From: a virus
DNA length: 64,000 nt
Virus record (IMG/VR): IMGVR_UViG_3300029850_000008
Direction: 5' to 3' (one strand)
Positions 9,999-25,385 of the stretch are shown one piece after another (within the stretch, counting starts at the first letter, position 1; the number at the start of each line of letters is the position of its first letter). The position numbers were made by a program, and so were the translations under genes. The notes below the pieces were generated by a model. It searched no databases and was not told where the DNA came from. It saw nothing but the letters and a program-made list of their open reading frames with translations.

Positions 9999-11753
9999 AT
10001 GAGTAATATATACCAGTTAAGAGAACTACTTAGAACACAGACAATTTATGATTTGCCGTTACGAGTTGCATACTATGCAAGAGTCAGCACAGATCATGAT
10101 GAACAGAAAACATCAATCAAGAACCAGGATGATTATTTTAAGGAATTGATAAAATCAAAGCCGAACTGGAAATTTATGGGAGGCTATATTGATGAGGGGA
10201 TTTCTGGAATTGCCGTAAAAAATCGTGAAGATTTTTTGAGGATGATTGATGATGCTAAGAATGGAAAGATTGATTTGATACTGACAAAAGAAATTTCCAG
10301 ATTCGCTAGGAATACACTAGATAGCATCAAATACACCCGTGAACTTTTGGCATGTGGTGTATGTGTATGGTTTATGAATGATGGAATCAATACGATTGAT
10401 GAAGACAGTGAGTTAAGATTGACTATTATGGCAGCTATGGCACAGGACGAAATCAGAAAGATGTCTTCCAGGATTAAATTCGGTCAGGCTCAGTCAATAA
10501 AAAATGGCGTAGTAATGGGAAATTCAAGATTGTATGGTTATGACAAAAAAGATGGAAAACTGACAATCAATGAAGCTGAAGCCGAAATGGTTCGATTCAT
10601 TTTTGAAAGTTATGCATCTGGCAAATGGACAACACCACAGATTGAACGATACCTATATGAAAAAGGGTACAGAAACTATAATGGAGGTAAAATCAACCGT
10701 GGAGTTATCAAAAATATCATAAAGAATCCAAAGTACAAAGGTTATTATGCTGGTGGAAAAGTAAAAGTTATTGATATGTTTACAAAAAAACAGATGTTTC
10801 TTCCAAAAGACCAATGGGTTTATTACAAGGATGATGGATCAACGGTTCCGCAAATCATAGATGAAAAGACTTGGGAAGATGCAAATTATTATATGAAGAG
10901 CCGTGGTGACAATATAAGAAGTCACAGAACGGTGTTTAAGTATGGTAATGTGTTTACTGGAAAGGTAATTTGTGGGATAGATGGTGCTTCGTATTGGCTA
11001 CGTGAACACAAGATACGTGGAAAAGAAAGTGATCCAAGATGGGTCTGTAGTCATAAAATCAAAAATGGAGCAAATTCTTGTCTATCGGTTCCTGTCAGAG
11101 AAAGCGACTTGAAACAAATGGTTGCATCAGCAATCAGTCAAGCAGCTGGAAACTCTAAAGATGTTATTGATTCATATATGAATTATTACTTAAAAGCCAT
11201 TGATGATTCAAAAGAAAAAGAGGGAGAAATAGCAGTTTTAAGAAAAAATATTGAATCCACAAAATTGAAGATGGAGAAAATCCTGGATTACAATTTGAAC
11301 GGATCAATATCTGATGATGAATTCTTAAAAAGAAACGCTGCGTATAAAAAAGAGATTGAAAACGCAGAAGAGAAAATTCTAAAATTGTCTAAAAAACCGG
11401 AAGAGCCGGATTCTATTGCAAGGAAAATCGAACAGATAAGGGAATACTTGGCGAACACAGAAATTGTTTCTGCTGATGACATAACTAAACAAATTGTCGA
11501 AAAATTAATTGAAAAGATAATTATATTACCAGAAGAGGAAAATGGTATAAAAGTCATCAAGTCAGAAATATACCTTATAAATAAGGAACTGTATAAGTTT
11601 TGTAAGGATATGGGGACAAAAAATAGTTGTTCAGATAACGTAACTTTGATCATGTTCCCTAAACAACGCATGGAAATTACTAATGAAAATGCGCATTGTG
11701 TGAACCAGTATAAAAGATTTTCAATAGAATTTTCTCTCTTTGTAAGATTTTAA
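9999..11753 (+). CDS. large serine recombinase (integrase)
   Basis: Resolvase catalytic N-terminus YARVSTDHDEQKTSIKNQ, 584 aa with Cys cluster and long coiled-coil tail. Confidence 0.9.
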   Translation: MSNIYQLRELLRTQTIYDLPLRVAYYARVSTDHDEQKTSIKNQDDYFKELIKSKPNWKFMGGYIDEGISGIAVKNREDFLRMIDDAKNGKIDLILTKEISRFARNTLDSIKYTRELLACGVCVWFMNDGINTIDEDSELRLTIMAAMAQDEIRKMSSRIKFGQAQSIKNGVVMGNSRLYGYDKKDGKLTINEAEAEMVRFIFESYASGKWTTPQIERYLYEKGYRNYNGGKINRGVIKNIIKNPKYKGYYAGGKVKVIDMFTKKQMFLPKDQWVYYKDDGSTVPQIIDEKTWEDANYYMKSRGDNIRSHRTVFKYGNVFTGKVICGIDGASYWLREHKIRGKESDPRWVCSHKIKNGANSCLSVPVRESDLKQMVASAISQAAGNSKDVIDSYMNYYLKAIDDSKEKEGEIAVLRKNIESTKLKMEKILDYNLNGSISDDEFLKRNAAYKKEIENAEEKILKLSKKPEEPDSIARKIEQIREYLANTEIVSADDITKQIVEKLIEKIIILPEEENGIKVIKSEIYLINKELYKFCKDMGTKNSCSDNVTLIMFPKQRMEITNENAHCVNQYKRFSIEFSLFVRF

Positions 11754-11916
11754 ACTAACAAAAGATGAAAAAAGGGCAGAACCTACCAAATAAAATTGCC
11801 ACGGTGAAGAACAAGTTCATCGTGGCTTTGATTATAAGCTATTCTAATGTTTAAGTCAATATTGCAAGAAATAATTGTCTGAATTTTTCAGAATTGTTTT
11901 TTTCGGAATACTAATT

Positions 11917-11980
11917 GGAAATTTTTTGATACCCCCCCTGGGTCTGGTTTTCTACTGGAAATTCCATTTTCAATCTTCTC
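11917..11980. repeat. 64-bp bipartite direct repeat, copy A
   Basis: GGAAATTTTTTGATACCCCCCCT ... GAAATTCCATTTTCAATCTTCTC; first 23-mer 22/23 identical to copy B. Confidence 0.7.
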
Positions 11981-12040
11981 TAAATTCTCTTCTGAAATTC
12001 TAAGAATTTTTTTCAAAAATTTTTTCTCGCCAGACCATTC

Positions 12041-12104
12041 GGAATTTTTTTGATACCCCCCCTACCCTCTATTTTGGAGCCGAAATTTCGATTTTCAATT
12101 TCTC
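12041..12104. repeat. 64-bp bipartite direct repeat, copy B
   Basis: GGAATTTTTTTGATACCCCCCCT ... GAAATTTCGATTTTCAATTTCTC; 124 bp downstream of copy A. Confidence 0.7.
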
Positions 12105-12305
12105 GAAAAACGCTTCAAAAATCCCAGGCAGATTTTGTTCAGATCCAATGGCAGACCTCACCAGAGCGATTTTGACGGCTTTTGTGGCTGGAGTATATGA
12201 AAGTCCTGCTGAAAACCTGGAAACGCCTAAATGGGGCTATAAACGTGCCTATTAATTAGATTACATCGTACCACAAATAAACTCAATATACAAGTGTAAA
12301 CACAA

Positions 12306-12332
12306 ATAGAGGGGCGTTATTATCCCCTCTAT
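12306..12332 (-). terminator. intrinsic terminator of the minus-strand micro-gene operon
   Basis: 9-bp stem ATAGAGGGG/CCCCTCTAT directly after stop at 12332-12334, followed on the minus strand by UUUGUGUUU. Confidence 0.65.
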
Positions 12333-12532
12333 TATTCATAAAAGCCCCATGCTTTGTATTGCTTTTTCAATACTTCCAAAGCAGAATTTTTACTGAGAAA
12401 CTCAGCTCTAGCCGTTTCTCTTGTATATTTCTTGGCACTATACCAGGCGAAACCATTGATCACATACCAGGAATCCCCGTGATCATCGGTTTCCAGCTCA
12501 ATACTATAAACCATCTTTTTCTTACGTGGCAT
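12332..12532 (-). CDS. hypothetical micro-protein (66 aa)
   Basis: Track ORF; SD AAGGAGG 8 nt before ATG. Confidence 0.55.
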   Translation of the reverse strand: MPRKKKMVYSIELETDDHGDSWYVINGFAWYSAKKYTRETARAEFLSKNSALEVLKKQYKAWGFYE

Positions 12533-12568
12533 GGCTTGACCTCCTTATTCTTTTTTTCTGGATATGCT

Positions 12569-12758
12569 AAAAAATCCCGGATATACCGCCGGGGCGGTGC
12601 CCTGTTATGGCCTTGGACATCGGCTACAGTGCTGGCTTTTTCGGCTCCCAGTCAACGCCGCTTTTGCCTCCCTTCGCGATCCGGGCATTAAAAGCGGATA
12701 AAGCCCGGAGAGAAACCCAGCGGCGGACTGAACCGCCCACGGCTTAACCGTCACAGGG
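12569..12758 (-). ncRNA. candidate structured RNA (~190 nt, GC-rich, pseudoknotted), class unknown
   Basis: Closing helix 12600-05/12753-58, three hairpins, interleaved helices 12681-86/12703-08 and 12658-65/12690-97, U6 at the 3' end. Confidence 0.4.
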
Positions 12759-12764
12759 TAGGTT

Positions 12765-12827
12765 TTATAAGAGGCTCAAGCTATAACCTCCGATAAATGA
12801 CAAAACGGCAATAAGAACGTAATACAT
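12765..12827 (-). CDS. 20-codon hydrophobic mini-ORF (MYYVLIAVLSFIGGYSLSLL)
   Basis: Strong SD AAAGGAGGG 6 nt before ATG at 12827-12825; TAA at 12767-12765. Confidence 0.3.
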   Translation of the reverse strand: MYYVLIAVLSFIGGYSLSLL

Positions 12828-12842
12828 ATGTTTCCCTCCTTT

Positions 12843-13103
12843 CTATGCTTGGCAGAAATCGCCCTGCCAGCCTGTTACTAGGATCATTTTCCCGTCATCC
12901 CGGCGGTAAACAACGCCGCAGCCGTCCGCCCATGTGCTCCATACAAGCCAACCTGGACGGCCTACAGTTTCCTTTTTTCTGGAATCGTACCAGATAAAGG
13001 ACGGCTTAATACCTTCTTTTTCTTGATCCAGAGCGTTCTGGATCGCTTGATCTTCCGTGATAATCTGGTTATGATCCTTAAAATGCAAGATATATTTTCT
13101 CAT
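12843..13103 (-). CDS. hypothetical micro-protein (86 aa)
   Basis: Track ORF; SD GGAGGAAAA upstream. Confidence 0.55.
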   Translation of the reverse strand: MRKYILHFKDHNQIITEDQAIQNALDQEKEGIKPSFIWYDSRKKETVGRPGWLVWSTWADGCGVVYRRDDGKMILVTGWQGDFCQA

Positions 13104-13138
13104 GTGTTTTCCTCCATTTTTTTTGATTTTTATAAAAA

Positions 13139-13178
13139 CGCCGCCCGTGGGAATCGAACCAACGAAACTCCAAACGGC
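13139..13178 (-). other. tRNA-like acceptor/T-arm minihelix followed by U run
   Basis: Minus strand GCCGUUU-GGAGUUUC-GUUGG-UUCGAUU-CCCAC-GGGCGGC-G then UUUUU; starts right after a stop codon. Confidence 0.3.
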
Positions 13179-13328
13179 TTAATATTCGATGAATACAAAC
13201 TCTTCATCGGTTTCCAGTTCTGCAACCCGGTTTCCAAGTGTGATAAGCATAAAACCGGCCTTTCTGTAATCCTTGATAAGGCTTTCAAAATGCTCCTTAC
13301 TTGCTGCGGTGATTTTATATTTTCTCAT
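13179..13328 (-). CDS. hypothetical micro-protein (49 aa)
   Basis: SD AAAGGAAC then ATG 13328; the longer track ORF 13179..13448 would run through the ribozyme. Confidence 0.45.
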   Translation of the reverse strand: MRKYKITAASKEHFESLIKDYRKAGFMLITLGNRVAELETDEEFVFIEY

Positions 13329-13341
13329 ATTGTTCCTTTCT

Positions 13342-13404
13342 CGCCTGTCATCATCAGCGCAACGGGGCGGATCGTTGCGGACGCCCTGGAGGGCGTTTCG
13401 ACTA
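13342..13404 (-). ncRNA. hammerhead ribozyme, type II (copy A)
   Basis: UAGUC GAAAC GCCC-UCCA-GGGC GUC^CGCAACG-loop-CGUUGCG CUGAUGA U GAC; predicted cut after C at 13380. Confidence 0.75.
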
Positions 13405-13662
13405 TTTAAGCAGCTTTTCAAATGCTTTTCTCTTTTTGTAATTTTCAACTTGACTTATACTGGAGTCATCAAAAAGGATCTGGAAACCATCAGAAGCAAG
13501 TGCTGCGGCCATTGTGTACGGGTCAATCTTTGGGAACCTGCAAAGGTATTCGACCACGTTCATTCTTATGTTTTTATCATTTTTCGTTCCGATCTTTTCA
13601 AGGTCTCTTTTGTAAACATTAAAAATTCTTTCCTGTTTCTCTTTCACGGTTTCTTTTATCAT
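13402..13662 (-). CDS. hypothetical micro-protein (86 aa)
   Basis: Track ORF; SD AAAGGA upstream; stop TAG overlaps the 5' end of hammerhead A. Confidence 0.55.
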   Translation of the reverse strand: MIKETVKEKQERIFNVYKRDLEKIGTKNDKNIRMNVVEYLCRFPKIDPYTMAAALASDGFQILFDDSSISQVENYKKRKAFEKLLK

Positions 13663-13683
13663 ATATTTTACGTCCTTTCTTTT

Positions 13684-13747
13684 TGCCCTGTCTCATCGGT
13701 GCAGGTGGGGCAGTTCCTACAGACCGCCGGGCGGCGGTTTCGACTAA
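13684..13747 (-). ncRNA. hammerhead ribozyme, type II (copy B, U4C core variant)
   Basis: UUAGUC GAAAC CGCC-GCCC-GGCG GUC^UGUAGG-loop-CCUGCA CCGAUGA GAC; predicted cut after C at 13722. Confidence 0.7.
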
Positions 13748-13975
13748 TTAGCATTCTCGGTGTATGCAACCAGTGTAAACAGTGTTTGTGGTTCCCTCGC
13801 AGCCGTTCAACCACTTTTTGCAGTGGTAGCAGATGCTATTGTAACGGTTGTATTCTGTAGCTTTTCCATATTCCTCGCACTCTTTGCGATATGGACAAGT
13901 GGTGCAGTCCTTTTTGTATTTATGGCAATTTCTTTTTAGCAGTTTTTCCAGCTCTAAAAATCTTTCTTTTGTCAT
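13748..13975 (-). CDS. Cys-rich hypothetical micro-protein (75 aa)
   Basis: Track ORF; 11 Cys including CTTCPYRKEC and CYHC; SD AAAGGAG upstream. Confidence 0.55.
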   Translation of the reverse strand: MTKERFLELEKLLKRNCHKYKKDCTTCPYRKECEEYGKATEYNRYNSICYHCKKWLNGCEGTTNTVYTGCIHREC

Positions 13976-14012
13976 GTTTTCTATCTCCTTTTAGGTTTTC
14001 ATCTCTTTGTTA

Positions 14013-14106
14013 TGTACACAATTATATAATGTTACGTACACAATATCAATGTGCATTTTACACAAAGTTACGCACACATTTTTATATATTTTTGATGTGT
14101 ACACAA
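14013..14106. promoter_or_regulatory. divergent promoter region with five GTACACAA-type repeats
   Basis: TGTACACAA 14013, CGTACACAA 14035, TTTACACAA 14057, CGCACACAT 14071, TGTACACAA 14098; TATAAT at 14120-14125. Confidence 0.45.
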
Positions 14107-14155
14107 CATTGAAACTATGTTATAATTTCCGCATAATGGAAGGGGGGGCCTTTTT

Positions 14156-14338
14156 ATGGCGATGTCAGAAGAACGAAAAAATTATCTGTATTCTTACAAA
14201 AAACAAAGGCTAAAGCGTGTCCCGCTGGATATGCAAATAGCGGACTATGAAGCGCTAAAAGCAGCAGCAGATCAAGCCGGGCAAACTGTCAACGGCTTTA
14301 TTAAACAAGCCATAGCCGAAAAACTGGAGCGGATGTAG
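14156..14338 (+). CDS. ribbon-helix-helix (Arc/CopG-like) protein
   Basis: 60 aa; KRVPLDMQIADYEALKAAADQAGQTVNGFIKQAI fits a beta-alpha-alpha RHH pattern. Confidence 0.65.
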   Translation: MAMSEERKNYLYSYKKQRLKRVPLDMQIADYEALKAAADQAGQTVNGFIKQAIAEKLERM

Positions 14339-14382
14339 TAGGAGAGAGGGGAATAACCCCCTCTTTTTCTATTTCCCGGCAT

Positions 14383-14586
14383 TTAACACATACTTCCGCA
14401 GATCCCGTCTTTTGGCGCTGGTTCGTCTAACCAGTGATTAAACGCTTCCGGGTTCCGGCGTTCGATCTCGTCCATGATCCAGCCCCTAACCGTTGAAAGA
14501 TTCGGGTTCCGCTCTGCGGTGCTGGTCGCCTCCCAGATGTCCAGGAGCTGACAGAGTGACATAGTTTTCAAGTCTTTTTTCTTCAT
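14383..14586 (-). CDS. hypothetical protein (67 aa)
   Basis: SD GGAAAGGAAG then ATG 14586 inside track ORF 14383..14691. Confidence 0.5.
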   Translation of the reverse strand: MKKKDLKTMSLCQLLDIWEATSTAERNPNLSTVRGWIMDEIERRNPEAFNHWLDEPAPKDGICGSMC

Positions 14587-14605
14587 GTTTATGTTCTTCC
14601 TTTCC

Positions 14606-14842
14606 TTAGAATTCGATTTTCCCATTTGATAAGCATTTGCAGGCGTATGAAAAACCTGCAATGAATGCTTTTTCCTGGATATCCCATACATTTTTATTGA
14701 TGGAGCATTCTATTTCCTCTGCTAATTCCTCTTTGAGAATTTCATGGATTTTTGCAACTGCTTTGTCATAATCTCCCCAACTAAGGTTCCCGGCTTCTTC
14801 CTCGAACCACTTTTTGTAAATCATTTTTGCGAATTCTTCCAT
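14606..14842 (-). CDS. hypothetical protein (78 aa)
   Basis: SD AAGGAG then ATG 14842 inside track ORF 14606..14905. Confidence 0.5.
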   Translation of the reverse strand: MEEFAKMIYKKWFEEEAGNLSWGDYDKAVAKIHEILKEELAEEIECSINKNVWDIQEKAFIAGFSYACKCLSNGKIEF

Positions 14843-14989
14843 GTTTAACTCCTTTCTTAAAACAAATGTTTTACTATGGTTTAATAATACACTATAGTAA
14901 AACAAATGTCAACATTATAACAAAACATTTTAAACTATATTGAATAATTATATTTGTTATGGTATTATATAGAATATAGGAGGGGAAAA

Positions 14990-15202
14990 ATGGAGAATAT
15001 AAGAAATGAAATTAAATCATATATAGCAAAAAGCGGTATGACATTAACGGAAATAATAGCTAAATACAACGAGACGCATGACACACCAACAACAACACAA
15101 AACATTTCTAATAAGTTGACCAGAGGAACTATAAAATATAGTGAATGTTTAGAACTAGCTAAAATCATGGGGTATGTTATTAAATGGGAAAAAGAAAATT
15201 GA
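14990..15202 (+). CDS. small helix-turn-helix regulator
   Basis: SD AGGAGGGG then ATG 14990; SGMTLTEIIAKYN ... ISNKLTRGT HTH-like segment. Confidence 0.55.
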   Translation: MENIRNEIKSYIAKSGMTLTEIIAKYNETHDTPTTTQNISNKLTRGTIKYSECLELAKIMGYVIKWEKEN

Positions 15203-15314
15203 TTTCATATTCTGCTAAATAAGTCATGTAATTTTGCTATTTAATCGCCCCTTTTAGTATGAATTTTCCCACATTTGTGATATAATAAAATCAAAAATGA
15301 TGGGAGGATTTTTT

Positions 15315-24978: not shown

Positions 24979-25050
24979 TGGGCTATCGCCAAGCGGTAAG
25001 GCACATGACTTTGACTCATGTATGCGTTGGTTCGAATCCAACTAGCCCAG
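24979..25050 (+). tRNA. tRNA-Gln (anticodon UUG)
   Basis: Acceptor TGGGCTA/TAGCCCA, anticodon arm CATGA-CTTTGAC-TCATG, T arm GTTGG-TTCGAAT-CCAAC. Confidence 0.85.
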
Positions 25051-25312
25051 CTTGGTAAGATTTATTTACCTTACCAAAATAGCATATCATTTATGCTATT
25101 CCTCCTCATTCATATTACCACCTAGCGGAAAGCTGATAAAAGAACCGTCACAAGGTTCGGGTGGTTTTCTGGTTTGGAAGCCAGGACATGTGCAAAGTTC
25201 CGAACTGTTTACCACATCATAGGGATGTTTGCATGGCCTTTGTTATGGCTGGTGGATAAGAACCATAACAGTGAAGGGGATTTCTTGCAGAATTCAAATC
25301 CCCTTTATCTCA

Positions 25313-25385
25313 GGAGCTTTATTTCAGTTGGTAGAAAGACCGCCTCATAAGCGGTAAGTCATCGGTTCGAGTCCGGTAGGCTCCA
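25313..25385 (+). tRNA. tRNA-Met-type (anticodon CAU; Met vs Ile2 vs initiator not resolved)
   Basis: Acceptor GGAGCTT/AGGCTCC (one G-U), anticodon arm ACCGC-CTCATAA-GCGGT, T loop TTCGAGT. Confidence 0.85.

Follow-up and report, generated by a model that had tools for sequence, protein, structure and literature searches.

We analysed a 64,000-nucleotide (nt) stretch of viral DNA, IMG/VR record IMGVR_UViG_3300029850_000008 (hereafter the window), in which a minus-strand operon of very small genes carries two hammerhead-like elements between its cistrons. These elements, A (13404 to 13342) and B (13747 to 13684), are very probably genuine type II hammerhead ribozymes, their self-cleavage being predicted from sequence and from the covariation of their relatives. 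They share one orientation and bracket a single open reading frame (ORF), ORF2, which encodes 86 amino acids (aa), with predicted cut sites 342 nt apart. In related phages, the slot that follows the ORF2 homologue usually holds a different RNA element, a tRNA-like minihelix. Below we describe the pair and its relatives, and weigh the tentative idea that the two kinds of element are interchangeable.

Anatomy and detection of the hammerhead pair

Read on the minus strand, hammerhead A runs UAG-UC GAAAC GCCC-UCCA-GGGC GUC/CGCAACG-AUCCGCCC-CGUUGCG CUGAUGA U GAC AGGCG, where the slash marks the predicted cut. Its stem II is formed by a 3′ strand, GUC at 13402-13400, and a 5′ strand, GAC at 13349-13347; the former is followed by GAA at 13399-13397. 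Stem III (13396-13381) reads ACGCCC-UCCA-GGGCGU, C17 lies at 13380, and cleavage is predicted between 13380 and 13379. Stem I (13379-13358) is CGCAACG-AUCCGCCC-CGUUGCG and leads into the core box CUGAUGA (13357-13351) and an extra U at 13350. The pseudoknot tail GGCG (13345-13342) pairs with CGCC in loop I over 4 bp. The UAG stop codon of ORF2 occupies 13404-13402, its G being the outer base of stem II, and the 3′ end of the element lies 13 nt before the ATG of ORF3 at 13328.

Hammerhead B has the sequence UUAGUC GAAAC CGCC-GCCC-GGCG GUC/UGUAGG-AACUGCCCCA-CCUGCA CCGAUGA GAC AGGGCA. Its stem II comprises GUC at 13744-13742 (3′ strand) and GAC at 13692-13690 (5′ strand), with G12A13A14 at 13741-13739. 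Stem III (13738-13723) is ACCGCC-GCCC-GGCGGU, C17 is at 13722, and the predicted cut falls between 13722 and 13721. Stem I (13721-13700) reads UGUAGG-AACUGCCCCA-CCUGCA and is followed by the core box CCGAUGA (13699-13693), with C4 at 13698. The tail GGGCA (13688-13684) pairs with UGCCC of loop I, giving a 5-bp pseudoknot. The element starts one base after the UAA stop of ORF1 and ends 21 nt before the ORF2 ATG at 13662. For both A and B, a GAAAGGA Shine-Dalgarno (SD) sequence stands between the end of the ribozyme and the next ATG.

Both elements show permutation II, in which loops cap stems I and III and stem II is left unclosed, as seen by direct reading, by a descriptor and by alignment to positions 1-66 of the Rfam Hammerhead_II model (RF02276). 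With that family they share the core boxes, the A15.1-U16.1 and C15.2-G16.2 pairs, the GUC triplet, capped stems I and III, a short open stem II, the pseudoknot between loop I and the tail, and a prophage location near an integrase. Core A contains every conserved hammerhead base and differs from the family by one U inserted between A9 and G10.1. Core B contains every conserved base except for a C at position 4, and its score falls 6 bits under the curated one. An earlier note on this DNA had described the pair, and the transcribed minus-strand sequences match its letters exactly. The type II topology, the core and the GUC cleavage triplet that it proposed were upheld by sequence reading and by the full-model alignment. 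From the ORF coordinates we confirmed its account of the intercistronic placement, with a stop codon at the start of each element, the next ATG 13-21 nt downstream and the SD just 3′. The two core deviations it had pointed out, the extra U at 13350 and C4 at 13698, are both real, and the pseudoknot it had suggested pairs in A and in B and covaries in relatives.

In searches with RF02276, A scored 40.2 bits against a gathering score of 37, with an E-value of 1e-4 for the whole window and 9.5e-7 locally. B scored 31.0 bits, below the gathering score, with an E-value of 2.4e-4 in a 601-nt search. The covariance-model check proposed in the earlier note thus placed A above the Rfam gathering score and B as a significant sub-threshold match. 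Neither A nor B came up in a gathering scan run with the default fast filters of Rfam, which was due to the filters and not to the sequences of the two elements. A was reported (13339-13403) in scans with permissive filters; the whole-window E-value scan gave A alone, and B appeared in the short-region scan only. We also used a descriptor that called for GAAAC, at least 5 bp each in stems III and I, any base but G at position 17 (H17), YNGANGA followed by 0-2 inserted nt, and 3 bp in stem II. Within the window it matched A and B and nothing else. No match came from the window after dinucleotide-preserving shuffling (60 replicates), nor from the GC-rich region 12300-14000 shuffled 2000 times.

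Related loci, covariation and core variants

The ORF2 protein has homologues at 48-93% identity, and 66 related loci, each encoding such a homologue, were collected. One came from a first scan of viral contigs with the single protein (L008), four from exact protein look-ups, two from metagenome-assembled genomes named Schaedlerella and Eubacterium, and 59 from IMG/VR viral contigs of about 35-60 kb each. An Rfam scan of the first five loci returned type II matches of 67.1, 66.9, 58.9, 40.4, and 40.2 bits, together with B-type matches of 30.3 and 29.9 bits in the gap directly upstream of the ORF2 homologue. The descriptor found 67 good hammerheads, which are spread over 41 of the 66 loci, lie without exception on the operon strand and occupy gaps equivalent to those of A and B. 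The A type occurs in the window, L001, L002, and L008, with a variant in L062 in which a stem II U-A pair has become C-G and one stem III G-C pair has become U-A, the fold being kept. The B type always carries C4. A C type has stem II GCC/GGC and the pseudoknot GGUCU:AGACC, mostly with the extra U, and a D type forms a rarer further lineage. The same ribozyme lineages adjoin different genes.

Covariation was measured in a MAFFT alignment of 36 distinct hammerhead sequences; an earlier alignment of 10 sequences, also made with MAFFT, was dropped, the extra U and one stem III being out of register. Paired cells amounted to 97.8%, compared with 78.5% after column shuffling and 28-43% when partners were slid by 1-3 columns, the stems in this alignment having been partly preselected by the pairing-demanding descriptor. 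Changes on both sides were seen in 15 of 20 pairs (stem II 1/3, stem III 4/6, stem I 6/6, pseudoknot 4/5), and the covariation score of 0.552 (versus 0.208) was reached by none of 500 shuffles. In stem II, U-A was replaced by C-G in 18 of the 36 sequences. The pseudoknot, which was not used in selection, was 91% paired, its changes including UGCCC:GGGCA to CGCCC:GGGCG. This helix and a recount by sequence only are the two measures free of preselection. In the recount, 67 of 68 candidates pair and are the same 67 hammerheads; the other candidate is a near-hammerhead in L020, and the pattern also gave 27 chance matches to its degenerate core. The earlier note had held that non-compensatory substitutions in stems I and III of related phages would count against the assignment, and the opposite was found. 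At the level of sequence, these data demonstrate selection for the hammerhead fold in the relatives.

The elements also fit their gene borders closely. All 47 distinct hammerhead contexts have one common layout, with the upstream stop placed 2-6 nt ahead of stem II. The upstream stop is UAG with its G as the outer base of stem II in 26 of them, and UAA ending 0-3 nt before stem II in 21. In every context (47/47), the next start codon lies 18-35 nt after the 5′ strand of stem II and is preceded by a GAAAGG-type SD. The ribozyme exactly fills the intercistronic spacer.

Neither core deviation is a peculiarity of the window. Half of the distinct sequences (18 of 36) carry the extra U after A9, the 67-bit scorers among them, and C4 is fixed throughout the B lineage. 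We scanned IMG/VR for C4 hammerheads with the pattern GUCGAAAC...GUC...CCGAUGAGAC (loci L067-L186), which returned at least 120 contigs and at least 84 distinct sequences, among them several unrelated stems and pseudoknots that still pair; many of the matches come from one large sample (3300045988), so that contig counts overstate independence. Control patterns with A or G at this position gave 2 and 10 IMG/VR matches, respectively (L187-L198). All other core positions are kept in 84 of the 84 distinct C4 sequences listed. Judged by these counts, C4 looks like a natural variation that phage type II hammerheads tolerate or prefer, and not like a sign of decay.

Deviations at the same two positions are known from other hammerheads that function at reduced rates. 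According to the passage of PMC3088659 that cites Ambros and Flores 1998, a U4C viroid hammerhead is considerably slower in vitro and sufficient in vivo. The passage of PMC1636495 citing De la Pena and Flores 2001 describes an A10 inserted between A9 and G10.1 of the CChMVd (+) hammerhead, and hammerheads of Penelope-like elements have a conserved extra nucleotide at this place (PMC4209133). Those ribozymes are type I or III and belong to viroids or retroelements, whereas here C4 and the extra U are fixed in large phage type II lineages. Since U4C is slower in vitro yet sufficient in vivo in the literature, B is probably active and would probably cut more slowly than A. Hammerhead B misses U4 and the Rfam threshold; it shows the other features that can be judged from sequence, and its lineage is large and covaries.

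A tRNA-like minihelix in the same intercistronic slots

After the ORF2 homologue, a hammerhead is found in 8 loci, as in the window; the other loci usually have a tRNA-like minihelix. This element consists of an acceptor-like helix of 6-7 bp, a linker of 3-15 nt and a stem of 5-6 bp closed by UUCGAUU, which corresponds to a T-arm. Stacked coaxially, the two helices span 12 bp and resemble the upper half of a tRNA; D and anticodon arms are missing. The window has a copy of its own at 13178-13137 (minus), in the gap after the 49-aa ORF3, which reads GCCGUUU-GGAGUUUC-GUUGG-UUCGAUU-CCCAC-GGGCGGC and continues into a U run; its T stem contains one mismatch. A covariance model was built from ten equal-length copies from other phages, because, with linkers of differing length, MAFFT misaligned the acceptor strands. 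The window copy, which is absent from the seed, is the best match of the window to this model (21.8 bits, E-value about 0.002 with filters off).

The model identified 55 copies in 64 related loci, 55 of 55 on the operon strand (for example L003:3145-3190, L004:3392-3437, and L047:3485-3530). Among 29 distinct sequences, 94.5% of cells were paired compared with 58.5% after shuffling, in an alignment that was fitted to the model and so favours the structure. Both sides had changed in 7 of 7 acceptor pairs and 3 of 5 T-stem pairs. RNAalifold recovered the T-arm only. In the 120 loci retrieved by the C4 hammerhead pattern alone, a regular-expression scan found 64 minihelix elements on the hammerhead strand, nearly all of them 255-790 nt downstream of the ribozyme, compared with about 7 per replicate in shuffles. 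Matches on the opposite strand are pieces of true tRNA genes 4-7 kb away. Related contigs contain tRNA genes as well, on the opposite strand and 4-7 kb from their hammerheads, and the window has phage tRNA genes for Gln(UUG) and Met(CAU) at 24979-25051 and 25313-25385 (plus). ARAGORN and Rfam did not report the minihelix, and our searches of a literature library found no description of such a tRNA-like element in phage operons. We rejected the possibility that it is a tRNA-gene fragment of an attachment site, since both acceptor strands covary and every copy lies on the operon strand.

Minihelices made of an acceptor stem and a T-arm are minimal substrates of bacterial RNase P, and mitochondrial polycistronic RNA is cut at its tRNAs, an arrangement called tRNA punctuation. 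The phage element resembles both in its 12-bp acceptor/T-arm helix, its UUCGAUU T-loop and its position between coding regions. It differs from tRNA in having no D or anticodon arms and no encoded CCA, and is not a tRNA gene. A reasonable reading is that host tRNA-processing enzymes (RNase P or RNase Z) may cut the operon RNA at the minihelix. ORF3 together with its minihelix (13104-13330) forms a clean insertion/deletion relative to the closest relatives L001 and L002, in which hammerhead A is directly followed by an 86-aa gene (MRKYILHF...); both genes begin with MRKY. The RNA elements seem to be the places where cassettes are swapped.

We put forward, as a possibility rated at well under even confidence, that the hammerheads and the undescribed minihelix are interchangeable punctuation in the same slots, the hammerheads serving simply to sever polycistronic RNA; as a secondary part of the proposal, C4 would be a common selected variant and not a defect. 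The course of cleavage expected for A and B belongs to the main explanation, that they are genuine hammerheads, and not to this proposal. Stems III and I would fold while the polycistronic RNA is being synthesised. A ribosome terminating on the upstream gene would cover stem II and part of stem III, and folding would wait for its release, because the stop codon overlaps or abuts stem II. The 3-bp stem II would close after its 3′ strand has been transcribed and the terminating ribosome has gone, and loop I would pair with the 4-5 nt just past stem II. By the established chemistry of the family, the RNA would then cut itself after C17, at 13380 in A and at 13722 in B. The upstream piece would end in the stem III hairpin with a 2′,3′-cyclic phosphate, and the downstream piece would begin with a 5′-OH directly on the stem I hairpin, its SD lying a few bases past the pseudoknot tail. 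The net outcome for the operon RNA would be messages of one gene each, uncoupled from one another in stability and in translation. In Bacillus, the 5′-OH ends left by the glmS ribozyme are attacked by RNase J1, and a hairpin at the extreme 5′ end protects RNA; the predicted downstream products combine a 5′-OH end with a terminal 5′ hairpin.

Several points weigh against this main explanation of the pair. The effect of cutting on RNA stability is pure inference. In 25 of the 66 loci, an ordinary tight stop-SD-start junction lies upstream of the ORF2 homologue, and the ribozyme is therefore dispensable for that gene. The folding z-scores of the two elements, -1.7 and -0.5, are unexceptional, single-sequence folding being blind to the pseudoknot, and the nested minimum-energy fold of B favours the pseudoknot helix over stem I. 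A near-hammerhead in L020 has an uncompensated G-G in stem III. To these are added the score of B under the Rfam gathering threshold, the partial preselection of the aligned stems, and the reported loss of in vitro activity with U4C (PMC3088659), the change that B carries.

In a different explanation, B and the whole C4 lineage are catalytically disabled derivatives kept for another role, be it an intercistronic structured insulator, a protective hairpin module or a ribozyme that depends on a signal or a protein. Its score of 31.0 bits and the considerably lower in vitro activity stated for U4C in the relevant passage of PMC3088659 fit such a derivative, and Perreault et al. raised the idea that slower phage variants might be regulated (PMC3088659). 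However, the rest of the core is intact in the 84 distinct C4 sequences listed, and the stems covary, as does the pseudoknot, whose pairing is important for rapid catalysis. At position 4, C is also at least 12-60 times commoner than A or G, which makes it look like a tolerated catalytic variant and not like decay, and the viroid U4C variant works in vivo according to the passage cited in PMC3088659. We consider a disabled B lineage unlikely, though it is the least unlikely of the alternatives. It is also conceivable that A and B act jointly to excise a 342-nt RNA (13721 to 13380) holding ORF2, with 5′-OH and 2′,3′-cyclic phosphate ends that a host RtcB-type ligase could circularise or join. 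The geometry permits this, as ribozymes of the same orientation flank one gene, and Perreault et al. named the possibility; their search of such clusters for circles or spliced RNA was negative (PMC3088659). In the relatives, moreover, the second ribozyme is often missing or replaced by the tRNA-like element. Cuts by RNase P or RNase Z at that element would leave other ends than hammerhead cuts. Joint excision is very improbable in our estimate.

A further explanation treats the 60-70 nt blocks mainly as DNA, namely as homology patches for mosaic cassette exchange, with any ribozyme activity incidental. The occurrence of the same ribozyme lineages beside different genes would suit such patches, as would the clean gain or loss of cassettes at the elements, exemplified by ORF3 and its tRNA-like element, which are absent in L001 and L002. 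But a DNA patch would not select compensatory pair changes or a covarying pseudoknot, and the elements are always oriented along the operon strand. We rate this explanation as low as joint excision. Finally, a hammerhead core is short, and random matches in large databases are something that Perreault et al. caution against (PMC3088659), so that GC-rich hairpins or terminators might contain hammerhead boxes by chance. The E-value of 1e-4 for the window, the empty shuffles, the presence of two copies in one operon, and the conservation and covariation in relatives refute chance resemblance and terminator hairpins, which retain a negligible probability.

Operon setting and comparison with known hammerheads

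The operon lies in a minus-strand island at about 14050-12300 that holds six very small ORFs (75, 86, 49, 86, 20, and 66 aa). The rest of the window is transcribed from the plus strand and has phage-like content. Upstream of the operon, a consensus scan found a promoter-like TTGATA-17-TATAAT at 14021-14049 (minus), a candidate by its consensus match (11 of 12 positions). ORF1 (13748-13975, minus) encodes a Cys-rich protein of 75 aa, and its UAA stop at 13750-13748 abuts hammerhead B. It is followed by hammerhead B (13684-13747, minus), by ORF2 (13402-13662, minus), the anchor for locating the related loci, and by hammerhead A (13342-13404, minus). ORF3 (13179-13328, minus) has its SD, GAAAGGA, at 13340-13334, and the minihelix (13137-13178, minus) separates it from ORF4 (12843-13103, minus; 86 aa). 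ORF6 (12332-12532, minus; 66 aa) is the last gene, and a hairpin follows it at about 12329-12302. Pfam and PHROGs searches gave no family match for the small ORFs of the operon, ORF1 and ORF4 included, and no function was assigned to them. A blastn search with 11800-15300 found no match in the phage collection. A serine recombinase gene at 9999-11753 (PHROG integrase, E-value 2e-113) ends about 1.6 kb from hammerhead A. The phage is a temperate one of gut Clostridia, and the ribozyme operon, a set of tiny accessory genes, adjoins its serine integrase.

Several further features were seen around these genes. A GC-rich non-coding gap of 230 nt (12763-12533, minus) separates the 20-aa ORF from the last ORF and ends in a terminator-like hairpin with a U run at 12593-12576. 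It is nearly invariant in the three closest relatives, L001, L002, and L008, and absent from the other relatives; it had no Rfam match, and its folding z-score was -0.9. An acceptor-like helix around two hairpins is one way to draw its 5′ end (12760-12700). The non-coding stretch between the operon end and the stop of the serine integrase holds two exact copies of GGGGGGTATCAAAAAA, at 11922-11937 and 12046-12061 (minus), 124 nt apart, where 0.01 would be expected by chance. A similar sequence containing GGGGGGTATCAAAAAA lies at the matching place in L001, L002, and L040, and the repeats may be part of an attachment site or an operator. A 60-aa ribbon-helix-helix, Arc-like protein (PHROG 13890, E-value 5e-11) is encoded at 14156-14338 (plus), opposite in strand to the two minus-strand units that flank it and facing the promoter-like site of the operon; it may regulate the ribozyme operon. 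In L003, a 66-aa gene near the ribozyme operon (884-1084, minus) has a precomputed Pfam match to the anti-CRISPR family AcrIC5. This match suggests a possible accessory or anti-defence role for the small-gene regions, comparable to the ardA cluster of A. tumefaciens.

Perreault et al. 2011 (PMC3088659) described natural type II hammerheads as common in bacteria, noting that stem II has just 2-3 bp, that pairing of loop I with the 3′ tail in a pseudoknot is important for rate, and that the core occasionally varies. The same work found prophage clusters near integrases in which several ribozymes flank single genes, and proposed that they split operon RNA. Polycistronic constructs of about 2 kb from three clusters were cleaved in vitro, and the A. 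tumefaciens cluster was also cleaved in E. coli (PMC3088659). The present locus is like the clusters of Clostridium scindens, Azorhizobium caulinodans and Agrobacterium tumefaciens ardA (PMC3088659 Fig. 3) in having several intergenic ribozymes per polycistronic unit that bracket individual small genes of varying identity. As in those clusters, two ribozymes of the same orientation surround ORF2 in a phage-like window close to an integrase. It differs in host lineage, being a gut Clostridia phage with a serine integrase, and in its genes. The exact packing against stop codons and the alternation with a tRNA-like element are seen here and have no mention in the text of PMC3088659 that is cited. 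In D. vulgaris, three type II hammerheads near hypothetical or phage-like genes are cut in vivo, as detected by cyPhyRNA-seq (PMC8782182). They share the type II topology and the phage-like neighbours and are active in cells there; they belong to another organism and other loci, and lie at separate genome locations and not as a pair in one operon (PMC8782182). A 2019 review (PMC6765202) regards the purpose of such ribozymes as unresolved and in need of additional work.

A and B are new examples of the class described in 2011, and every main point about them is already in Perreault et al. (PMC3088659). The pair itself is a correct and expected find, which adds two members and a phage family of 36 distinct sequences. 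For searches, hammerhead A illustrates that default Rfam filters can miss a match scoring above the gathering threshold, and search descriptors can profit from the finding that two core changes supposed to be disallowed occur commonly in nature. Among similar phages, one and the same gene may have a hammerhead, a minihelix or nothing before or after it, which makes this family a good place to test what hammerheads are for. If the proposed interchange is true, the swap between hammerhead and minihelix would be a natural experiment on the selected function of bacterial hammerheads.

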